Notes: a model not told the origin generated them from the sequence alone. A stretch of 64,000 nt of DNA from Bacteroides uniformis (GCA_963600815.1 CAVCCX010000001.1:39001-103000), one strand, 5' to 3'; shown: positions 1-10,102, counted from the first letter of the stretch. Numbers and translations: made by a program.

Positions 1-1008
1 GTCTTCCAAGACAGAATAGATCTGGATGGTCAGGGAGACACCGCGGAGAGAGAAACTCTTCAGATTGTCCAAGGAAAGATCCTTGACCAAATATCTTGAT
101 TTTGAAACACCCTGCTTGATTGTCTGGCTCGAGGTGATGGAGAAATCATTGATGCTGATTTCCTCGATTGTCCCGTCATAGTATTCGAAACGGAAATAGG
201 CTGTCTGAACATTGGTGATGGCGGATTGGATTACAGACTTACCCGCAGTGATATCTTCTTCATTCTTCTTATAGATGCTGGCTTTTTTCTCCTGATACAA
301 TTCGGCAGTCGTATTGTTGTAGGTGACATCGAAGGTTGTATAGGGACCATAATTGTAGATGCCATCCAACGTCGCACTGAAATAGGGTTCAACATCCACA
401 CTGTTCGTTTTGGATAAATTGATTTTGCATTTATAGTTTTTATCCTTATCAATCGTCAGCTTTTTGTTTTCATCCGTCTTATAGCCGAAGATATTGTAGA
501 TGGTCAGATAATCGTTGCAGAATTCTTCTTCATCAGAAAAAACGAAATCAAAAGAGATTGTGATATACGTCTGTCCCATTTCCGTTCCGATGCCGTCAAA
601 AATATCGGTCGCGGATTTCAGGGGCAGTTCTTCTGCAACTTCCATGATTTCGTTTGTCGCCTTATCCTTTAAATTGTAAACTGCAACCAAAGGATAATAC
701 ATATCCTCATCCTTCGAACCATGATAACCTAAAATATAGCTTTCTTCGCTATCATCAACGTTGAAAGTGATGGTGAAGGACTGTGAATGATTTGTCTTTG
801 TCGGGTTTGTGATCTTGACGATGAAAGCATCATCGATATCCTTGATTTCCTTTGCTGAAGAATCATATATATCTTTTTGGGCATAGCGTACATTCTTGCC
901 ATCCTTCATTTCAAGGGCAGTGGAAGTTTGAGGAAGGCCCAATAAGATGCCAGAACAAAAACCTAACAATACACTCGTAAACAGTGTCCAAATCTTTCTC
1001 ATTTTCAT
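1..1008 (-). CDS. Hypothetical secreted protein or putative lipoprotein. It is partial in the window: the N-terminus is present and the C-terminus runs past position 1.
   Basis: An unbroken minus-strand frame runs from the ATG at about 1006-1008 to the window edge. It is absent from the ORF track because there is no stop in the window. The N-terminus MKMRKIWTLFTSVLLGFCSGILLG looks like a signal peptide with a Cys. An AAGGA RBS sits about 10 nt upstream. Confidence 0.5.
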   Translation of the reverse strand, partial: MKMRKIWTLFTSVLLGFCSGILLGLPQTSTALEMKDGKNVRYAQKDIYDSSAKEIKDIDDAFIVKITNPTKTNHSQSFTITFNVDDSEESYILGYHGSKDEDMYYPLVAVYNLKDKATNEIMEVAEELPLKSATDIFDGIGTEMGQTYITISFDFVFSDEEEFCNDYLTIYNIFGYKTDENKKLTIDKDKNYKCKINLSKTNSVDVEPYFSATLDGIYNYGPYTTFDVTYNNTTAELYQEKKASIYKKNEEDITAGKSVIQSAITNVQTAYFRFEYYDGTIEEISINDFSITSSQTIKQGVSKSRYLVKDLSLDNLKSFSLRGVSLTIQIYSVLED

Positions 1009-1173: not shown

Positions 1174-2205
1174 TCACTCATCCAGTCTGCTTTCGGAGAC
1201 AAACAAATGACTCACCCGTTCATCTTTTTCACGTTCGAGAGCAATCTCTGCAAGGGAGAAATAGATTTTGTCGTTCGTGATATCCAGATCATAGAGTTGC
1301 AACATATATTCCGGGAATGTCTGCTTCCCCTTGGTGAAGATCATCATCGTTGCCGAGACAAGAAGCGGAACACCCAGGGTGAAGAAAGACAGAAGAAGAA
1401 TGCCAAGAATATAGATTGCCTCATAAGCAAGAAAGCGTCCGGTCTTGATGGAAAGAAGAGAGGAATCCGCTTTTCCAATATGATAGATCAGCATGCCGAT
1501 GGTCTGTCTGTTTCTTCTGAAGATCAAAGGAGGGACAAGAAAGACAAGCACGGCAGCTAAGACAACGGCGACAGGCAATTCAACAAAGACCACCATATTC
1601 GACATGAACTTCGTCGATTCCATATATTTTGGAAAGCAGGAAAGAAGATAGCTTCGGCACTGATTATCCAGAAACGGCTGATAACAGACCTCATTATATA
1701 TTTTGTAGCTATCCGTCTGATTGAAACTAGGATTCAATATGATTTCCTCTCCCTCTTGGACAAAAAGGAAAACCCCATCCTTTTTCACTTCCAGTCGGAA
1801 GGAATCATAGGAGGCCTGAACAACCCTTCCATTCTCTATATTCTCCTCTTTCACAAAAGCGATGAAGGCAGAAATGATATCCTGATAGGTCGTCATCTTC
1901 TCTTTTGCGGAGATATCCTGGTTCGAATAGTAGCTGACCACATCATATCTCTCCTGATTGCTTTCGAGATATAGTCCGCTGTCGAGCATGATATGATCGA
2001 CATATTCCTTTCTTTCCTTATAGAAGGAAGTCGAGCTGATGATTCCTCTCATCATCAGAAAAAAGAGCAAGCCAAAAACGATGGCCAAGAGAAAATCGAC
2101 GAACTTGGAAAAGATTCTTCGCGACATCAAGGCTTTTTTGTATTGAATATGAATTCCTTCTTCTTTTTTTTCTTCCTTCATCGAATAAAGATCTTTTTCA
2201 GGCAT
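1174..2205 (-). CDS. RDD-family-like polytopic membrane protein with an insert of about 170 aa, probably extracytoplasmic, between TM1 and TM2.
   Basis: N-terminal R..FVD..L motif in the first TM helix (RRIFSKFVDFLLAIVFGL). C-terminal RQTIGMLIYHIGKAD...TGRFLAYEAIYIL resembles the RDD-domain core GQTLGK...R. Its stop overlaps the start of the upstream gene by 8 nt. Confidence 0.45.
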   Translation of the reverse strand: MPEKDLYSMKEEKKEEGIHIQYKKALMSRRIFSKFVDFLLAIVFGLLFFLMMRGIISSTSFYKERKEYVDHIMLDSGLYLESNQERYDVVSYYSNQDISAKEKMTTYQDIISAFIAFVKEENIENGRVVQASYDSFRLEVKKDGVFLFVQEGEEIILNPSFNQTDSYKIYNEVCYQPFLDNQCRSYLLSCFPKYMESTKFMSNMVVFVELPVAVVLAAVLVFLVPPLIFRRNRQTIGMLIYHIGKADSSLLSIKTGRFLAYEAIYILGILLLSFFTLGVPLLVSATMMIFTKGKQTFPEYMLQLYDLDITNDKIYFSLAEIALEREKDERVSHLFVSESRLDE

Positions 2206-3298
2206 GATCCACTTTGTATCCTTTTAATGTTGCGAGTTTTTCCAAATCGCCTTTCTTAATATAGCATGTTTTCGTCAATCGGTCTGATAAACCGATGCCA
2301 TAGGAATCAAAACAGAGATAGACGAATGAAATAAGAGACAGCACAGAACCGACAAGAGAACAGGTCAGAAGTCCGGGAATGGAGAAGAGGGTAGCAAATT
2401 CAATGAATAGCATCGGTAAGAAGATCATCAAAGAAAGGTTGAAGAAGAAATAAAAGAAGAAAGGAAGAATCCTCTCTTTTCTTTTCAGGACCTTCAGATT
2501 GTCCAATCCGACCTTCTCATATCCAAGTGCCATCATTGAGATTGTTTTCCCTCTTCTGGAGAGCATCGGAATCAAAAGAAAATAAACCAAGCAGCCAAGC
2601 GCATAAGAAATATAACAGTCAACAGAGAGAATCCCTCGATTCGTCTTCTCCAGTTTCGTATTCTCTTCCTTATAGGCGCGATAGGGATAAACAGGAGAGG
2701 AGGAATCCACTTTTTCATTTTGGAGAATATCTTCGATCATAGCGGAATAGAAATTTGGAAAGATAGAATTGATCAATCGTCGATAAACAGTTTCCCCTTT
2801 TGAGGAAAGAGTATCCTTGCTGTCCAATAATGGAGAAAGAAGATTCTGATATTCTTCCTTCAAGAAGACATCCTTGGAAATCTCGAAATAACCGTTTTTG
2901 TCATTCTTTTTATAAAAATCCAGGTAAGTCTGGTTCTCTTCTTTCATAATATCGACAAAATAATGATAAAAATAGTCATGTTTTTTTTCATGATTAAGAA
3001 AAGAAAGGACGAACTGATTTCCAGAATAGGTCAGAGAGGAGGTGAAGCTATCCTCTTCATTCTCTTTTTCGAGAAGCTGATTCTCAAAAAGGACATCCAC
3101 CATCCGCACCTGATTGTCATTGATTTTCTTTTCGTTCTCATCATATCCGGCAGCACTTCTTGATATCGGAAAAAGAAGGACAGAAAAAAAGAAAAGGGCA
3201 AGGAAGAAGTTCAGAAACAGGTCACAAAAATGAAGAAGGACTCTTCCTCCTTTTTTCAGCGGATGGATTTCGACATATTCAGGATTCATTTGACTCAT
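2198..3298 (-). CDS. RDD-family-like polytopic membrane protein, paralog of the 1174-2205 gene.
   Basis: Same architecture as its neighbour: an N-terminal TM helix (R..LLHFCDLFLNFFLAL), a long insert, then RRGKTISMMALGYEKVGLD plus further TM helices. It overlaps the SIR2-like gene by 4 nt. Confidence 0.45.
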   Translation of the reverse strand: MSQMNPEYVEIHPLKKGGRVLLHFCDLFLNFFLALFFFSVLLFPISRSAAGYDENEKKINDNQVRMVDVLFENQLLEKENEEDSFTSSLTYSGNQFVLSFLNHEKKHDYFYHYFVDIMKEENQTYLDFYKKNDKNGYFEISKDVFLKEEYQNLLSPLLDSKDTLSSKGETVYRRLINSIFPNFYSAMIEDILQNEKVDSSSPVYPYRAYKEENTKLEKTNRGILSVDCYISYALGCLVYFLLIPMLSRRGKTISMMALGYEKVGLDNLKVLKRKERILPFFFYFFFNLSLMIFLPMLFIEFATLFSIPGLLTCSLVGSVLSLISFVYLCFDSYGIGLSDRLTKTCYIKKGDLEKLATLKGYKVDHA

Positions 3299-4596
3299 AG
3301 TTGTTCAAGATAGGAACCGATTTCGCTGTATTCATCAATCCAGATGACAATCAGATCGAAGGTGAAGAAATAGGCTGTCAGATCCTTATAGACCGTCTCG
3401 GAATAGCCTTCGATCTTCTTTAGGAAGATGAAGTTGAATTTCATATAGTTGTTCGCCAGTTCGAGCAGTCTCTTCATATCCGGATCGGTCAATGAGATGC
3501 CGATGAAGATGCAGACATTGAACTTAAAGTCATGCAGCTGCTTGCTGATCGACCAGCTATAGGGATTATTATAGAGATAATAGTATTCGGATTCATTGAA
3601 AATCAAAGAATCCGTATATTTCTTCTCATCGTATTTGTCAAAAGGAAGAAGTCCATGCACATGATAGATATCCACTTTGGCTTCCTTGTCGACAAAGGAA
3701 TTGTCATCATAGACGACCGTATATCGTATCTGTCTCTTCTTGAGCAGGTATTCGAGATTCGTATCGTAATTGTAGGTGATGACACTCGTCTTGTTCTTCT
3801 TCTGAAGATAGTCGACCAATCGGTAGAGTGTCGCATCAGGATCGTCGAATCCTTTCGCTTCCTTGAAGAGATAGAGTTCCCGGTTTAAAGACTTATAGGA
3901 ATCAAAGCCCGATGTCTTCATAATCATAGAGGAGGTAAAGAGTTCCTTTCCGACATAGGTCTGGATTTCTTGGGCAAATTTGTAGTCTCCCTTATAGAAA
4001 TCATTGTTGAGGGAATCGAGCAGTTCCTGCCAGTTCTTGGCTCCATAATCCTGATTGATGCCAGCACCTAAGACCAGATCGACATTCAGTTTTGTCGTAT
4101 AAAGCCGGATCAGCCACAAGACAAAGGAAGAAGCCGAATCATTGATATTCTCATTCTTCTTGTCATGGGAAAGATGATAGAGAAGATCATCCGTCACGGA
4201 TGTCTTCTTCAAGTTGTAGCGATAGGAAACTTTCACACCTTCCATGAATCCGATGGCATAGAAATCCGAAGAGGAGAAATAGATATTCAGACTCGCCTCG
4301 GGAAGATAGAAGTCATAGTCCATGTTCTTCACCTTGACGATGTTGACATTGCCCATGACATCCATGTTCTCGGGATTGAACCTCGCCAGGGAAGGATAGA
4401 TATGCGCCACATATTTATGGATATGATCTTTCTTTGACCGCACGATGGCCTTGAAATTGCAGGTCGGGTCAAAATGGAATCCAAAAGACCGTAGCACAAT
4501 CGAGTCATAGGAAACATTGGAATGATAAAAAAGGAAGAGAAGAACCAAAAGTGCTTTTTTCTGAAAGATGTATTCGTCTTTTTTTGATTTGTCCAT
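3295..4596 (-). CDS. SIR2-like domain protein (SIR2_2/PF13289-like) with an N-terminal hydrophobic anchor.
   Basis: Three ordered motifs at appropriate spacing, typical of defence-type SIR2 domains: DLVLGAGINQDYGAKNWQELL (GAG), VITYNYDTNLEYLL (TNYD) and IYHVHGLLP (HG). The N-terminus ALLVLLFLFYHS is a signal/TM-like segment. This is the first gene of a three-gene overlapping operon. Confidence 0.5.
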   Translation of the reverse strand: MDKSKKDEYIFQKKALLVLLFLFYHSNVSYDSIVLRSFGFHFDPTCNFKAIVRSKKDHIHKYVAHIYPSLARFNPENMDVMGNVNIVKVKNMDYDFYLPEASLNIYFSSSDFYAIGFMEGVKVSYRYNLKKTSVTDDLLYHLSHDKKNENINDSASSFVLWLIRLYTTKLNVDLVLGAGINQDYGAKNWQELLDSLNNDFYKGDYKFAQEIQTYVGKELFTSSMIMKTSGFDSYKSLNRELYLFKEAKGFDDPDATLYRLVDYLQKKNKTSVITYNYDTNLEYLLKKRQIRYTVVYDDNSFVDKEAKVDIYHVHGLLPFDKYDEKKYTDSLIFNESEYYYLYNNPYSWSISKQLHDFKFNVCIFIGISLTDPDMKRLLELANNYMKFNFIFLKKIEGYSETVYKDLTAYFFTFDLIVIWIDEYSEIGSYLEQL

Positions 4597-4637
4597 AGAA
4601 AAGATCCCTTCAATATTATAAAAGGAAAGATAAAAAA

Positions 4638-4672
4638 ATCCTACCCCTTGATCAGAGAGGTAGGATAATTTT
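4638..4672 (-). terminator. Rho-independent terminator downstream of tuf.
   Basis: Hairpin ATCCTACCTCTC..GGGTAGGAT followed by a T-tract on the minus strand, immediately 3' of the tuf stop. Confidence 0.5.
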
Positions 4673-4693: not shown

Positions 4694-5878
4694 TTAGTCG
4701 ATGATTTCGGAGACAGTTCCGGCACCGACGGTGTGACCACCTTCACGGATAGAGAACTTGGTCTGGTTTTCCAAAGCGATAGGATGGATGAGTTCGACAG
4801 TGAGCTCAACGTTATCACCAGGCATAACCATCTGAACATCAGCAGGAAGAGTGACAGTTCCAGTGACATCGGTTGTACGGAAGTAGAACTGAGGTCTGTA
4901 GTTGTTGGTGAAAGCAGTATGACGTCCACCTTCTTCCTTCTTCAGGACGTAGACCTGACCCTTGAACTTCTTGTGTGGAGTGACGGATCCAGGTTTGCAG
5001 ATGACCTGACCACGGACGATCTGATCACGATCGACACCTCTCAACAAGGCACCGATGTTATCACCAGCCTCGGCGAAGTCAAGGATCTTACGGAACATTT
5101 CCATAGAGGTGCAGACGCACTTTCTGGTGTCCATGATACCGACGATTTCGACTTCATCATTCGGCTTGAGCATACCACGTTCGACTCTACCAGTGGCAAC
5201 AGTACCACGGCCAGTGATGGTCATGACATCTTCGACAGCCATCAAGAATGGCTTATCGTTGTCACGGACAGGATCCGGGATGTAGGAATCAACAGCATCC
5301 ATCAATTCCATGACGGAACCTTCCCACTTTTCTTCGCCATTGAGGGCGCCCAAAGCGGAACCACGGACGACAGGGAGTTCATCTCCAGGGAAGTTATACT
5401 TGTTGAGCAATTCACGGACATCCATTTCGACAAGGTCGATCAATTCCGGATCATCGACCATATCGCACTTGTTGAGGAAGACGACGATGTAAGGAACACC
5501 GACCTGACGGGCAAGCAAAACGTGCTCTCTGGTCTGTGGCATAACACCATCCGTAGCGGCGACAACAAGGATAGCACCATCCATCTGAGCGGCACCGGTG
5601 ATCATGTTCTTGATGTAGTCAGCATGGCCTGGGCAGTCGACATGGGTGTAATGTCTTGTAGCAGTATCGTATTCGATGTGAGCAGCATTGATGGTGACAC
5701 CACGAGCTTTCTCTTCTGGTGCGGCATCAATCTGAGAATAGTCCATAGCCTGGGAAAGACCCTTCTTGGCAAGGACGTGGGTAATAGCGGCAGTCAAAGT
5801 GGTTTTGCCGTGATCGACGTGACCGATTGTACCGATGTTGACATTCGGTTTGGAACGGTCGAACTTCTGTTTAGCCAT
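4694..5878 (-). CDS. tuf: Elongation factor Tu.
   Basis: [32 protein letters not shown]..., full-length 394 aa with canonical G-domain motifs. Confidence 0.97.
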
Positions 5879-5956
5879 AATTTAAATTTCCTCCAAATTT
5901 GATTCTAAATGACTATACACTTTTTGATTCTTATTTTCAAGAAGAGAGGAGGTGTT

Positions 5957-8089
5957 TTAACCTCTCTTCTTGATAATTTCTTCCTGGACAGATGCCGGAA
6001 CTTTCTGATAATTCGAGAATTCCATGGTGTAGATACCTCTACCCTGGGTCATGGAACGAAGATCAGAAATGTAACCGAACATGTTGGCGAGCGGAATCTT
6101 GGCAGTGATGACCTGGGCATTGGCCTTCTGGACCATGCCTTCGACCATACCACGGCGAGACGAGACATCGCCCATGACAGTTCCGACGTAGTCGAGAGGT
6201 GTCGTGATTTCAGCCTTGACGATTGGTTCAAGGATGATCGGATGGCACTTCTTGGCAGCGACTTTCAGGGCTTCCTGGGAAGCGAGCTTGTAGGCAGCTT
6301 CGGAAGAGTCGACATCATGATAGGAACCATAATGCAAGGTGGCCTTGACATCGATGACTGGATATCCGGCAACCATACCACGCTGGAAAGCATCGTTAAG
6401 ACCATCGATAGACGGCTTGATGAATTCCTTGGGGATGACACCACCGGTGATGGCATCGACAATTTCGTTGCCCTTTCCAGTGTTGGGTTCCATCTTGAAG
6501 ACGACGTGACCATACTGACCATGACCACCGGACTGCTTGATGTACTTACCTTCGCAGTCAGCGGCCTGCTCGATGGTTTCACGATAGGCAACCTGCGGAG
6601 CACCGACTCTGGTTTCGATGCCGAAGTCATTCTTCAGACGGGTGACATTGACATCCAACTGGAGTTCGCCGACACCGGCGATGATGCCCTGACCGGTTTC
6701 CTGATCGGTGTAGTAATGGAAGGTCGGATCTTCTTCGGTGAACTTGACAAGCAAGGCAGCCATTTTGTCCTGATCGCCTTTCTTGACAGGTTCGATGGCT
6801 TCGGAGATGACCGGTTCCTGGAACTTGATGGACTCAAGCTGGACAAGCGGATCGCCTTCGCCGACAATCGTATCACCGGTACGGGTGGCCTGGAAGCCGA
6901 CAGCAGCGGCGATTTCACCGGCCTTGGCTTCGGTGATGTTCTCGTGGGAATCGGCATTGACCAATTCGAGACGGGAAACTCTTTCCTTCACGCCCTTACG
7001 GACGTTGTAGACATAAGAACCGGACTTGACAGTACCGGAATAGATTCTGAAGAAGCAGAGGGTACCAAACTGGTCGGTGGTCAATTTGAAGGCCAAAGCG
7101 ACGAATGGAGCCTTTGGATCGACAGAGAGGACAACTTCGCCACCCTCTTTGTTGAGAGCGACCGGAGCCGGGACATCGAGCGGGGATGGGAGATAGTCAC
7201 GGACAGCGTCCAAGACATACTGAACACCCTTATTCTTGTAGGCGGAGCCAGGGATGGCCGGGAAGATCTTGCCGGCGATGACTTCCTTACGGATGGCGGC
7301 CTTGATTTCTTCGACTGTTGGGGTCTCTTCCATCAAGAGCTTCTCCATCAAAGTATCATCGTTGTTGGCAAGGTTTTCGATCATGATCTGATGATAGACC
7401 TTGGCCTGTTCGACATCGTGCTGGAAATCAGCAAGGAGCGGACTATCCAGATCAACGATGTTTGGCTGCATCTGTTCAGACTTTTTCGGATCGTGATCCC
7501 AGAGCCAGGCCTTCATTTCGACCAAGTCGATAAGACCGAGCAAAGTCTGGGAAATACCGACTGGGTAGGCGATGGCGCAGCCATTGGCACCCAATCTCTC
7601 CTTGATGGAAGCGACGGACATTTCATAGTCGGCGCCGGTGGCATCAAGTTTGTTGACGAAGACAATACGTGGAACGTTGTACTTGTCGGCCTGTCTCCAG
7701 ACAGTTTCGGTCTGCGGTTCAACGCCGTTCTTTCCGTCGAGAACGCAGACAGCACCATCGAGAACACGGAGAGATCTTTCAACCTCAGCGGTGAAGTCGA
7801 CGTGTCCAGGAGTGTCGATCAAGTTGATACGATAGTCCTTCCACATACAGGTGGTCGCAGCGGAGTAAATGGTGATACCACGCTTCTGTTCCTGTTCGTT
7901 GAAGTCCATAGCGGAAGCGCCGTCGTGGGTTTCACCGATCTTGTGGGTTTTTCCAGTATAGAAGAGAATACGCTCACTCGTCGTGGTTTTACCGGCATCG
8001 ATGTGAGCCATGATACCGATGTTTCTAACTCTTTCAAGCGGGGTAGCTTCGTACTTGGCTACCATCGCCTGGTCGTTATCCATTGCCAT
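5957..8089 (-). CDS. fusA: Elongation factor G.
   Basis: RNIGIMAHIDAGKTTTSERILFYTGK... over 710 aa. The first ATG is preceded by AAAGGAGA with a 7-nt spacer. Confidence 0.95.
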   Translation of the reverse strand: MAMDNDQAMVAKYEATPLERVRNIGIMAHIDAGKTTTSERILFYTGKTHKIGETHDGASAMDFNEQEQKRGITIYSAATTCMWKDYRINLIDTPGHVDFTAEVERSLRVLDGAVCVLDGKNGVEPQTETVWRQADKYNVPRIVFVNKLDATGADYEMSVASIKERLGANGCAIAYPVGISQTLLGLIDLVEMKAWLWDHDPKKSEQMQPNIVDLDSPLLADFQHDVEQAKVYHQIMIENLANNDDTLMEKLLMEETPTVEEIKAAIRKEVIAGKIFPAIPGSAYKNKGVQYVLDAVRDYLPSPLDVPAPVALNKEGGEVVLSVDPKAPFVALAFKLTTDQFGTLCFFRIYSGTVKSGSYVYNVRKGVKERVSRLELVNADSHENITEAKAGEIAAAVGFQATRTGDTIVGEGDPLVQLESIKFQEPVISEAIEPVKKGDQDKMAALLVKFTEEDPTFHYYTDQETGQGIIAGVGELQLDVNVTRLKNDFGIETRVGAPQVAYRETIEQAADCEGKYIKQSGGHGQYGHVVFKMEPNTGKGNEIVDAITGGVIPKEFIKPSIDGLNDAFQRGMVAGYPVIDVKATLHYGSYHDVDSSEAAYKLASQEALKVAAKKCHPIILEPIVKAEITTPLDYVGTVMGDVSSRRGMVEGMVQKANAQVITAKIPLANMFGYISDLRSMTQGRGIYTMEFSNYQKVPASVQEEIIKKRG

Positions 8090-8125
8090 AGTGTTTCTCC
8101 TTTAATTATGGTTACGTAACTTCAA

Positions 8126-8599
8126 TTACCAACGATAGTGGGCATAAGCCTGGTTGGCCTGTGCTGTCTTGTGCATATCTTCCTTACGCTTGACAGCCTG
8201 ACCAGTGCCATTGGCAGCATCGATGATTTCTTCAGCGAGCTTGTCAGTCATGGTCTTGCCCGAGCGAAGACGGGCGAAGGTAACCAACCAACGGAGACCG
8301 AGGGTGACCTTTCTTTCCGGTGTGACTTCGACAGGGACCTGATAGTTGGAAGCACCGACTCTTCTAGCCTTCAATTCGACTTCAGGCATGATGTTGCCCA
8401 AAGCGATTTCGAAAACTTCGAGAGCTGGCTTTCCGGTCTTCTTTTCGACCTTTTCGAAAGCACCATAGAGAATGGTCTGGGCAGTGCCCTTCTTACCATC
8501 GAGCATGATGCGGTTGATCAATCTGGTAACCAACTTGGAGTTATAGATTGGATCGGGTAAAACGTCTCTTTTTTCAACTGAACCGTTCTTTCTAGGCAT
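8126..8599 (-). CDS. rpsG: 30S ribosomal protein S7.
   Basis: [38 protein letters not shown]..., 157 aa. Confidence 0.95.
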
Positions 8600-8612
8600 T
8601 GTGGTTTACTCC

Positions 8613-9038
8613 TTACTTCTTCTGGATGCTTCCATCTTTCTTGGTTCCGTATAAGGATCTACCCTGTTTACGGTTCTCGACGCCAAAGCATTCCATAGCG
8701 CCACGGACGATGTGGTATCTGACACCTGGAAGGTCGCGGACACGGCCACCACGGATCAAGACAACCTTGTGCTCCTGAAGGTTATGACCTTCACCGCCGA
8801 TATAGGCTGTGACTTCATAGCCATTGGAGAGTCTGACTCTGGCGTACTTACGAGCAGCAGAGTTCGGCTTCTTCGGAGTCATCGTACCAACACGGGTGCA
8901 AACACCCTTCTTCTGAGGAGCAGCAATAGACTTCTCCTTTTTGTTAAGAGAATCGAATCTCTTTCCGAGAGCAGGAGCCTTGGATTTGTAAAGCGGGTTC
9001 TGTCTCTCTTTTCTGACCAACTGGTTAATAGTAGGCAT
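8613..9038 (-). CDS. rpsL: 30S ribosomal protein S12.
   Basis: [13 protein letters not shown]...[35 protein letters not shown], 141 aa. Confidence 0.95.
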
Positions 9039-9141
9039 TTTCTTCCCTCCGGATTTTTTATAAATAACCTATCCACATTACCGGGTGTTTCCAACTCTTC
9101 CCATAAAAAGAGCGGGCTTGGCCCGTAACGTGACGTTATGA

Positions 9142-9170
9142 ATTATACTCACCTGAAATCCACTTGTCAA
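9142..9170 (-). promoter_or_regulatory. Consensus sigma-A promoter of the str operon (rpsL-rpsG-fusA-tuf).
   Basis: On the minus strand, TTGACA, a 17-nt spacer, then TATAAT (TTGACAagtggatttcaggtgagTATAAT). Both hexamers are perfect. It lies about 100 nt upstream of rpsL. Confidence 0.6.
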
Positions 9171-9221
9171 AGGTTTTTTTCACTTTTTGACACGCCCGGT
9201 CTTGTTGACCATATTCCAGGC

Positions 9222-9248
9222 AAAAGAAAAGGTGGCCGGATGGCCACC
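9222..9248 (-). terminator. Rho-independent terminator after the BI-1-like gene.
   Basis: GGTGGCCATCCGGCCACC hairpin followed by TTTTCTTTT on the minus strand, just 3' of the stop at 9253. Confidence 0.55.
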
Positions 9249-9252
9249 CTAT

Positions 9253-10026
9253 TTAGTTTCTGTTCTTGGCAAGAAGAAGATAGTAGACGATGCGGATGAA
9301 GAGCCAGATGAAGTCAACATAGATTGTGAAGGCGCAATAGACGGCAAGATTGTTTCCATTGTCGAAGCCACCTTTCTCGGCAATCCTATTGATATTATGC
9401 ATATCGAGGATGGTCGAGATGATCATCACGCCGAACAAGACGAAGTCGAGAATCAGATAAATCGTATTCGAGCCGATGAAGATATTGACCAAGGAAATGA
9501 CAAGAATGCCAGCGAGAATAGAGAAGAGAATCGGATAGACGATCTTCAGATTCGAATTCTTCGTCAAGGCGCCGATCAATCCACAGACTAAGAAAATTCC
9601 GCCGGTGATGAAGAAGGCAAGATAGATGGTGTTGAGTCCTTCACCCGAGCCGATGAAGAGCAGGATGAGGGAAGAGAGAAGAACGCCCATGCATAAGGAA
9701 TAGATGATATAGGATGTGATCATCACAGGGAAATTCTTTCTGAATCCCTGCACATTGATGATGATGAAGGCGGGAATCATCAGCACGATCGAACCGATCA
9801 ATAATCCGACATAGACATTGGCTAGAGCATCCACCGATGCACCATCCTTTGCCGCAAGTGCGCCGAAGAGATAGGGCAAGGCGAAGGAAACGACACCGGT
9901 GATCAATAATCCAAGAGCAAACCACAGATAGACTTTGACAAGAGACAGGGTCGTCGACTGCTTTTCATTTGGCATCGCCTTTTCCGTCTTTGTTGTTTTG
10001 TCAGGCTGAAACGAAAAATGTTCCAT
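9253..10026 (-). CDS. Bax-inhibitor-1/YccA-family membrane protein.
   Basis: About 7 predicted TM helices, 257 aa. N-terminal VYLWFALGLL and a C-terminal YVDFIWLFIRIV motif typical of the BI-1/YetJ family. Confidence 0.55.
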   Translation of the reverse strand: MEHFSFQPDKTTKTEKAMPNEKQSTTLSLVKVYLWFALGLLITGVVSFALPYLFGALAAKDGASVDALANVYVGLLIGSIVLMIPAFIIINVQGFRKNFPVMITSYIIYSLCMGVLLSSLILLFIGSGEGLNTIYLAFFITGGIFLVCGLIGALTKNSNLKIVYPILFSILAGILVISLVNIFIGSNTIYLILDFVLFGVMIISTILDMHNINRIAEKGGFDNGNNLAVYCAFTIYVDFIWLFIRIVYYLLLAKNRN

Positions 10027-10102
10027 AAAAGAGTACCTCCTTTTCGAGTAGAACCATTATATACAAAATCACCTCGAAAATATATATTTGTGCAATATTT
10101 AG

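Follow-up and report, generated by a model that had tools for sequence, protein, structure and literature searches.

The DNA analyzed here is a 64,000-nucleotide (nt) stretch recorded as Bacteroides uniformis (GCA_963600815.1 CAVCCX010000001.1:39001-103000), which we refer to as the window, and the subject is a group of three overlapping genes on its minus strand, located directly behind tuf. The first gene encodes a 433-amino-acid (aa) protein of the SIR2_2 family, and the other two encode divergent membrane proteins of the RDD family; we call them SIR2, RDDa, and RDDb. A first-pass annotation had described them as a membrane-anchored SIR2-like protein, of a family used by defense systems, together with two dedicated membrane partners. 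The analysis presented here leads us to prefer, tentatively, a different reading, in which a soluble SIR2_2 enzyme heads an uptake cluster and is inherited vertically with the chromosome instead of moving as a defense module. The three genes and the two domains of the SIR2 protein are as follows:

4596..3295, minus strand: SIR2 gene, 433 aa, SIR2_2-family protein with no predicted transmembrane (TM) helix
4093..4596, minus strand: N-terminal domain of SIR2, aa 1-168, with a helix at residues 3-25, a seven-stranded beta region, and two helices
3298..4089, minus strand: SIR2 Rossmann-type catalytic domain, aa ~170-433, placed by Pfam, invariant columns, Foldseek, and the KomC alignment
3298..2198, minus strand: RDDa gene, 366 aa, divergent RDD-family membrane protein, whose start overlaps the SIR2 stop
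2205..1174, minus strand: RDDb gene, 343 aa, divergent RDD-family membrane protein

The open reading frames (ORFs) called in the window, which together occupy 4596..1174 on the minus strand, overlap by 4 nt (SIR2/RDDa) and 8 nt (RDDa/RDDb), in agreement with the three-gene operon and the overlaps given in the first-pass annotation. The genes rpsL, rpsG, fusA, and tuf lie upstream of SIR2 on the same strand, and the operon is flanked by these features:

4638..4666, minus strand: intrinsic-terminator-like hairpin, an 11-bp stem followed by TTTTTTT, which ends the rpsL-rpsG-fusA-tuf operon (found by a scan and by direct reading of the sequence)
4620..4615 and 4610..4605, minus strand: candidate -10 box TATAAT and ribosome-binding site (RBS) AAGGGA ahead of the SIR2 start codon (4596..4594), assigned by consensus match alone
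1..1008, minus strand: 5' part, up to the window edge, of a gene for a downstream membrane protein that has a signal peptide as well as a large extracytoplasmic domain

Since the terminator, and then the TATAAT box and RBS, separate the three genes from tuf, SIR2-RDDa-RDDb forms a new transcription unit. When the sequence upstream of the SIR2 gene was read directly, no -35 element was identified. That the three genes are a real operon with their own transcription unit we regard as settled, and because a strong terminator stands between tuf and SIR2, the adjacency to tuf is positional only. The gene for the downstream membrane protein follows RDDb on the same strand after a gap of ~165 nt. It had been noted as a further secreted-protein gene, and its signal peptide supports this; the ortholog, of 500-503 aa, carries three C-terminal TM segments as well.

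Membership of the 433-aa protein in the SIR2_2 family, which had been proposed from its motifs, is well founded. Pfam family PF13289 (SIR2_2) matched residues 271-386 with 48.7 bits (cut-off 24.5) and was the sole Pfam family at E <= 1, with no match to the canonical sirtuin family PF02146, and PF13289 was present in all 120 homologs listed, the best 120 of 308. Matches to the PADLOC SIR2 models were weak, that of the ThsA model (27 bits) covering the SIR2 part only (profile positions 107-273 of 478), and NCBIfam gave no match for the 433-aa protein. The full-length AlphaFold2 model, based on a 39-homolog alignment (pLDDT 81.9, pTM 0.84), contained the helix at residues 3-25, the seven-stranded beta region at 33-127, and a Rossmann-type domain from ~170 onward. 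In a Foldseek search of the PDB, this model matched EcThsA, KomC, BcThsA, and DSR2 with a probability of 1.00 and 15-18% identity, and the target-normalized TM-score to ThsA/KomC/DSR2 was 0.6-0.71. On the strength of these profile matches and the predicted fold, we consider it settled that the protein genuinely belongs to SIR2_2 and shares the fold of ThsA, KomC, and DSR2. The ordered motifs reported in the first-pass annotation are present and invariant, with the correction that its TNYD motif actually reads TYNYD. G177-A-G179, N276, and H314 are invariant in the 39 homologs, the latter two in the contexts T274-Y-N276-Y-D278 and H312-V-H314-G315, and the GAG, Asn, and His positions align with GAG, TTNYD, and (H)G of KomC 8zsi. 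Because of this invariance and this alignment, the NAD-cleaving catalytic apparatus of the SIR2_2 domain is predicted to be intact. There is no zinc module: the 433-aa sequence lacks CxxC pairs, and the only conserved cysteines are C46 and C362. Conservation is strong over the whole surface of the protein, including the N-terminal domain, where the mean column identity is 70%.

This N-terminal domain, described before as an uncharacterized domain of about 150 aa, is ~168 aa long and indeed has no detectable relative. When it was modeled alone, confidence was high (pLDDT 88.7, pTM 0.85), and a Foldseek search with the model against the PDB and BFVD (viral models) gave nothing at E <= 0.001. No Pfam match was found to the N-terminal 168 residues, a sequence-profile search of the PDB with the full-length alignment gave no match, and a profile search of 5.8 billion proteins with the N-terminal domain returned same-family fragments only. 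Homology to the N-termini of the nearest relatives outside the family was ruled out (hhalign probability 1.4%). Weak matches to YaeQ may hint at a degenerate restriction-endonuclease-like core, which we offer as a lead only. The hydrophobic anchor that had been proposed for this N-terminus did not hold up. The hydrophobic run spans 10 residues (A15-Y24), the maximal Kyte-Doolittle mean over 19 residues is 1.39 (threshold 1.6), and the insertion energy over 19 residues is +6.6 kcal/mol, compared to -2.2 to +1.0 for the RDD helices of the same operon, which served as positive controls for the two hydropathy scales. Both scales thus reject a membrane anchor on SIR2, and no TM helix is predicted. 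The A15-Y24 run is uniformly hydrophobic and not amphipathic, and L16, L17, and Y24 are invariant, therefore a packed or interface helix fits better than a lipid-facing one. The region of helix 3-25 would then be buried or form an oligomer interface, with at most peripheral membrane contact.

Both RDD proteins carry a large insert between TM1 and TM2. In RDDa, TM1 (~22-48) and an insert of ~175 aa are followed by three further TM segments, four in total, and in RDDb, TM1 (~33-57) and an insert of ~140 aa are followed by two or three. The insert length of about 170 aa given in the first-pass annotation for each protein is therefore right for RDDa and too long for RDDb. As in the RDD family (PF06271), an Arg precedes TM1, an Asp lies in TM1, a G-x-T-(I/L)-(G/S) loop follows the next TM segment, and there is a C-terminal (S/P)D; the difference is that here the domain is split by the 140-175-aa insert and occurs as a tandem pair of distant paralogs. 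The corresponding residues are R20, D26, G250-K-T-I-S (G250 and T252 invariant), and an S-D-R near the C-terminus in RDDa, and R29/R30, the invariant D37, and R231-Q-T-I-G (R231, T235, and G237 invariant) in RDDb. The copies in the window score below the PF06271 threshold (RDDb 23.3 and RDDa 13.8 bits; cut-off 24.1), and at E <= 0.01 the Pfam model matched 18 of 19 members of the RDDb family (best 5.6e-12) and 4 of 7 of the RDDa family (best 1.1e-7). In BLASTP, the paralogy of RDDa and RDDb is invisible (E = 1.9), but a profile-profile comparison of their orthologs aligned 292 columns with a probability of 99.4% and E = 7.5e-22. The earlier description as two paralogous polytopic RDD-like proteins thus stands, and by their profiles we take it as settled that they are true, ancient, and very distant RDD-family paralogs. 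They probably form a heteromer, and because of the distribution of basic residues, the inserts are predicted to face outward. Matches of the RDD proteins to Cas8f/Csy1 and Csm1 (E 0.014-0.08) were dismissed as noise.

Approximately 80 related loci, mostly retrieved by SIR2 similarity, were annotated with family hidden Markov models (HMMs). In 45 loci, RDDa lies directly 3' of SIR2 in the same orientation, with a spacing of mostly -56 to +6 nt, and an overlap of 19 nt (-19) recurs in many lineages. The RDD pair is divergently adjacent to SIR2 in 5 loci, and no RDD gene is present within 1.5 kb of SIR2 in 19 loci, so that the association seen in the window recurs in 50 of the 69 informative loci. 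Neither of the outcomes named beforehand as refuting the first-pass annotation, a failure to match SIR2-family profiles and a lack of synteny of the three genes elsewhere, was thus obtained. We found no description of a SIR2-RDD association in the literature, and likewise nothing relevant on RDD genes with ABC transporters. Sequence conservation of SIR2 is the same in the 19 loci without nearby RDD genes, and at least four kinds of gene neighborhood are seen for SIR2. One subclade contains a tightly packed operon of a HAD phosphatase, SIR2, PsuG, and a PfkB kinase, present in 8 loci (HAD_2-SIR2-PsuG-PfkB at L058 8346-12128, and also in L059, L060, L062-L064, L070, and L073). PsuG belongs to the pseudouridine-5'-phosphate glycosidase family, the operon resembles one for pseudouridine catabolism, and in L058 the HAD_2 gene overlaps SIR2 by 14 nt. 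In 5 loci, SIR2 is located between an ArsR/P-type ATPase pair and MalQ. Some loci carry a small lipoprotein gene (205-247 aa) directly after SIR2 (L066 2381-2998; L006 9340-10083), and the same position is occupied by ~730 nt without an ORF of at least 50 aa at L072 581-1312, and also in L019, possibly a decayed gene.

The RDD genes are linked to a transporter as well. In 41 cases, an ABC importer ATPase gene lies no more than 2.6 kb behind RDDb, and three apparent exceptions to this linkage all fall inside loci that carry the importer cluster. As the window ends after the first gene downstream of RDDb, the importer was read from orthologous loci. It is a UgpC/A/E/B-like (CUT1-like) ABC transporter. 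In the nucleotide-binding domain of its ATPase, a large insertion separates the N-terminal ABC_tran half from the half with the signature and Walker B motifs; this insertion measures ~270 aa in a 643-aa type (L001 13111-15042) and ~120 aa in a 506-aa type (L002 11713-13233). A complete cluster of the window type is found in L082, where tuf is followed by SIR2, RDDa, RDDb, the membrane protein, the ATPase, two permeases, a binding protein, a 477-aa protein, and SNase. In L080, an MG185/MG260-like lipoprotein and an SNase nuclease are present, and the lipoprotein substrate-binding protein (SBP), SNase nuclease, ABC ATPase, and two BPD_transp_1 permeases are co-located in L082/L083 and in L080/L081. 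An apparent rarity of SNase, seen in two loci, proved to be an artifact of the ±9 kb flanks, as L082 has SNase at the far end of the cluster. RDD-ABC cassettes also occur without SIR2, as extra copies in L040/L041 and L023, and in L078, where rpoC-rpsL-rpsG-fusA-tuf, with a tuf 74% identical to that of the window, is followed directly by three RDD genes and then by a MalK-like importer, and SIR2 is absent. The RDD genes of this locus (6345-10059) encode 524, ~330, and 352 aa, the 524-aa one taking the usual position of SIR2. These SIR2-less cassettes, the 41 RDDb-ABC linkages, and the 19 SIR2 loci without nearby RDD genes speak against the proposal that the RDD proteins are dedicated membrane partners of SIR2, and gene linkage best supports the view that the RDD pair would be part of an importer module.

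The cassettes behind SIR2 are of different types. In type I, found in the window, an additional membrane protein of 500 aa accompanies an ATPase of 640 aa; in type II, found in L002, the ATPase measures 500 aa and the last gene encodes a small protein with two TM segments; and further types exist. Between the window and L002, tuf is 99.5% and SIR2 98% identical, but the RDD proteins share only 21-30% identity, and the DNA homology (93% over 8.7 kb) stops at window position 3317 (L002 9280), ~20 nt before the SIR2 stop. Different cassette types behind SIR2 explain this abrupt loss of homology. Allelic hypervariation beside SIR2 was rejected in favor of paralogous cassette types I, II, and others, and an origin of the difference from tandem cassettes found no support, since L082 and L084 show type I directly behind SIR2. 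The small protein that ends the type II cassette (105-135 aa, two TM segments, no Pfam match) is found at L002 16823-17230, L009 7651-8004, and 13 further loci, and the L002 copy carries in addition a zinc-ribbon-like CxxC...CxxC motif at its N-terminus.

The gene content of these clusters recalls a co-transcribed lipoprotein-SNase-ABC cluster of Mycoplasma, for which uptake of nucleic-acid precursors has been proposed (PMC3585158). The Mycoplasma clusters (M. agalactiae MAG_5030-5070; MG185-189 type) share with L082 and L080 a sugar-type ATPase, two permeases, a lipoprotein SBP, and SNase, and they differ in gene order, while SIR2 and the RDD pair are absent from the gene map and text of PMC3585158; the substrate is putative in both.

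A search for SIR2 homologs yielded 308 at E <= 0.001, the best 120 of which are 59-100% identical and nearly all full length; sources with a name are Candidatus Enterosoma, 'Bacilli bacterium', and similar metagenome-assembled genomes. In a library clustered at 50%, the family forms a single cluster; scores then drop from 585 to 134 bits, and below this break come ~450-aa proteins that have only the SIR2 half in common. Across the 22 loci that carry both genes, the identities of tuf and SIR2 are correlated with r = 0.88, and over the range of this vertical inheritance tuf falls to ~72% identity. When the window was compared to two close relatives, the dN/dS of SIR2 was 0.014 and 0.017, that of tuf 0.012 and 0.025, and that of fusA 0.022 and 0.021; because SIR2 matches tuf and fusA, it is constrained like a translation factor. 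The values for RDDa (0.117), RDDb (0.091), and the downstream membrane protein (0.121) show that the membrane proteins of the operon are under purifying selection, yet with a dN/dS 6-8 times that of SIR2. The SIR2 tree matches the synteny, with the RDD- and tuf-linked state appearing ancestral and the RDD-unlinked loci forming two or three nested subclades. No close relatives were found in phage and plasmid collections. There are no mobile or defense genes among the annotated neighbors, the genes out to 22 kb are housekeeping genes (the 13 kb beyond rpsL, upstream, hold those for Bax1-I, TpiA, Pgk, Gap, WhiA, TrxB, Lgt, HprK, UvrA, and Pfk), and the window contains no second SIR2 or RDD gene. 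By correlation with tuf (r = 0.88), dN/dS (0.014), collections, and neighborhood, measures that do not gauge prevalence across genomes, SIR2 shows neither the patchy, horizontal distribution nor the location in defense islands or mobile elements of anti-phage genes. We regard it as settled that the arrangement is ancient and inherited vertically, and the best-supported view, judged from these comparisons, is that SIR2 would be a lineage-core gene of Candidatus Enterosoma-like Bacilli and not a mobile defense gene. In L080 (2787-4159), SIR2 is split by a frameshift into ORFs of 397 and 56 aa, an assembly error or a pseudogene, and truncated family members of 231-253 aa are also present in the protein database.

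Thoeris ThsA, KomC, and DSR2 share with the protein described here the fold of the catalytic domain, the GxG loop, the Asn and His positions, and the lack of a zinc module. They differ in sequence (15-18% identity), and here there is neither a SLOG/STALD domain nor a large sensor at the C-terminus, the N-terminal domain is unlike anything found, and descent is vertical with housekeeping-grade constraint instead of patchy and mobile. In ThsA, the SIR2 domain is followed by a C-terminal SLOG/STALD domain, whereas here SIR2 is the C-terminal domain and the protein ends at residue 433. No TIR gene that could correspond to ThsB lies nearby, the neighbors being tuf, RDDa, RDDb, and the membrane protein, and housekeeping genes to 22 kb. 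DSR1 and DSR2 are ~1000 aa long with an N-terminal SIR2 domain and a large C-terminal sensor, unlike the 433-aa protein with its C-terminal SIR2 domain. The partners of other systems, HerA, short pAgo/APAZ, and HAM1/deaminase (SIR2-HerA, SIR2-pAgo/SPARSA, and KomABC), have no corresponding Pfam domains in the flanks, either in the window or in the surveyed loci. Canonical sirtuin deacylases have PF02146 and a Cys4 zinc module, and the 433-aa protein has neither. Vertebrate FAM118 offers a precedent. FAM118A/B likewise form a lineage-specific SIR2_2 clade that stands outside bacterial phage defense, is strongly conserved over the whole surface, and is not a mobile defense system (PMC12700824), but kingdom and domain architecture differ, FAM118 activity requires filaments (PMC12700824), and the comparison made here is one of evolutionary behavior, not of sequence. 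Finally, stand-alone proteins of ~450 aa from other Firmicutes (P0130-P0269) have the same length and the same order of N-terminal domain and SIR2_2, with 30-36% identity in the SIR2 half; their N-halves are not detectably homologous, their contexts vary, and they lack the RDD pair. One such outside relative adjoins an IS110 transposase and a type I restriction-modification (R-M) system.

The interpretation that we put first, while holding it tentatively and somewhat short of an even chance, is that the locus belongs to the chromosome of gut Bacilli with reduced genomes (Candidatus Enterosoma-like) and is passed on vertically as a transcription unit, rather than being a mobile defense module, with a soluble SIR2_2 enzyme heading an uptake cluster. 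The SIR2 protein would be soluble and of the 'SIRim' type (SIR2_2), its catalytic domain being joined to an N-terminal alpha/beta domain specific to the family. The RDD heteromer, with its fast-evolving outward inserts, would work with the downstream cluster, i.e., the ectodomain membrane protein, the Ugp/CUT1-like importer, the lipoprotein SBP, and SNase, and this cluster may scavenge nucleic-acid precursors, as proposed for Mycoplasma, if the presumed importer substrate is right. SIR2 itself would most likely be a regulated enzyme that acts on the N-glycosidic bond of NAD+ or a closely related nucleotide, by cleavage or transfer, in the service of nucleotide/NAD economy or its control. Because it is co-expressed with precursor uptake here and with HAD-PsuG-PfkB in another subclade, we propose, with modest confidence, a role in nucleotide/NAD economy or its regulation. 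A more far-reaching version, which we regard as possible but doubtful, is that a SIR2_2 'immune' sirtuin has been domesticated in genome-reduced gut Bacilli into a core, near-essential nucleotide/NAD salvage (or control) enzyme that has a novel N-terminal domain and is expressed together with either nucleic-acid-precursor uptake or pseudouridine catabolism. Several points weigh against the interpretation put first. Every characterized bacterial relative by fold or HMM (ThsA, KomC, and DSR2) is an anti-phage NADase, and a housekeeping enzyme that cleaves NAD constitutively would be costly. The link to nucleotide salvage consists of two operon contexts and a putative importer substrate, and the importer components resemble sugar or glycerophosphodiester transporters. 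The tight SIR2-RDDa overlap would also be expected from a true SIR2-RDD partnership, and the SIR2-RDD adjacency survives rearrangement, the ABC genes having moved upstream in L009/L057 and the RDD-ABC block being inverted in L011/L065. Moreover, with loci mostly retrieved by SIR2 similarity, the counts do not gauge the frequency of SIR2-less RDD-ABC cassettes or the prevalence of SIR2 in the lineage.

The defense framing of the first-pass annotation fits the fold, while the evolutionary data (r = 0.88, dN/dS 0.014-0.017, no phage or plasmid relatives, and a housekeeping neighborhood) run contrary to it. In one rival reading, which corresponds to the first-pass description minus the anchor, the locus would encode abortive infection and be fixed in the chromosome: the RDD heteromer would sense a surface event (phage adsorption, DNA entry, or membrane damage) and activate the cytoplasmic SIR2 NADase, resulting in NAD+ depletion. 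The ThsA/KomC/DSR2 fold with intact catalytic residues agrees with this, and so do the widespread translational coupling of SIR2 and RDDa, the persistence of their adjacency through rearrangements, the sensor-effector pattern of a conserved effector beside fast-evolving, predicted surface-exposed RDD proteins (6-8 times the dN/dS), the different cassette type beside a near-identical SIR2 in L002, with the break at 3317, and the location of one outside relative beside IS110 and a type I R-M system. However, RDD pairs track ABC importers and not SIR2, and occur without it; SIR2 is equally conserved in the 19 loci without nearby RDD genes; the gene-wide dN/dS of the RDD genes (0.09-0.12) is purifying and not diversifying; and a dN/dS of 0.014, vertical descent to ~72% tuf identity, and the lack of defense or mobile neighbors are atypical for defense genes. 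We judge this reading unlikely. We also consider it improbable that SIR2 is an autonomous sensor-effector in defense or stress suicide, with the N-terminal domain as sensor and the SIR2 domain as NADase, fixed in the lineage and with its neighbors merely reflecting inherited synteny in slowly rearranging genomes. The adjacency to tuf would be a precedent, being as ancient and widespread as that to the RDD genes and yet non-functional, with a terminator in between; SIR2 is found in at least four gene contexts; and the nearest outside relatives are stand-alone ~450-aa proteins that combine another N-terminal domain with SIR2, a modularity typical of defense proteins. Housekeeping constraint and vertical inheritance oppose this, as does the operon packing in both main contexts (the 4-19-nt overlap with RDDa and the 14-nt overlap with HAD in L058), since such packing indicates co-expression with the neighbors rather than indifference to them. 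Very unlikely, in our view, is a role of SIR2 as regulator of the importer cluster, in which the N-terminal domain would read the NAD+/energy status or a ligand and the enzyme would modify an RDD or ABC component, e.g., by ADP-ribosylation. The gene arrangement places SIR2 at the head of the cluster as a co-transcribed gene, conservation over the whole surface, including the N-terminal domain (70%), suggests conserved protein partners, and SirTM sirtuins catalyze protein ADP-ribosylation (as cited in PMC12700824). Yet the zinc module and the features for peptide binding that mark protein-modifying sirtuins are missing from SIR2_2 proteins (PMC12700824), no CxxC is present here, and SIR2 is also kept in loci where the cluster does not adjoin it.

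Bacterial SIR2_2 proteins are read almost automatically as anti-phage NADases, and the SIR2 family described here, located in putative uptake and salvage operons of uncultured gut bacteria with reduced genomes, looks like a housekeeping family despite having kept the catalytic machinery. A physiological role would widen what is known of this enzyme class, bring into view an unrecognized step in the nucleotide/NAD management of these auxotrophic organisms, and call for caution in annotating defense from the domain alone. Domestication of SIR2, if it has occurred, would give bacteria a counterpart of vertebrate FAM118 and SIR2_2 its first bacterial housekeeping function, and a fixed suicide system wired to surface proteins would represent an unusual lineage-wide defense architecture. 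On either reading, the tandem RDD pair with a Mycoplasma-like importer provides a concrete and testable context for the poorly understood RDD family.

Two further observations concern the upstream region. On the plus strand, ORFs of 389 and 736 aa (window 4733-5902 and 5909-8119) run antisense to tuf and fusA; these are most likely shadow ORFs that arise from the codon composition of highly expressed genes. The Bax1-I gene, which encodes a YccA/BI-1-like membrane protein (window 9253-10026, minus strand), is located between tpiA and rpsL, and the gene order pgk-tpi-Bax1-I-rpsL is kept in L082 and L084.

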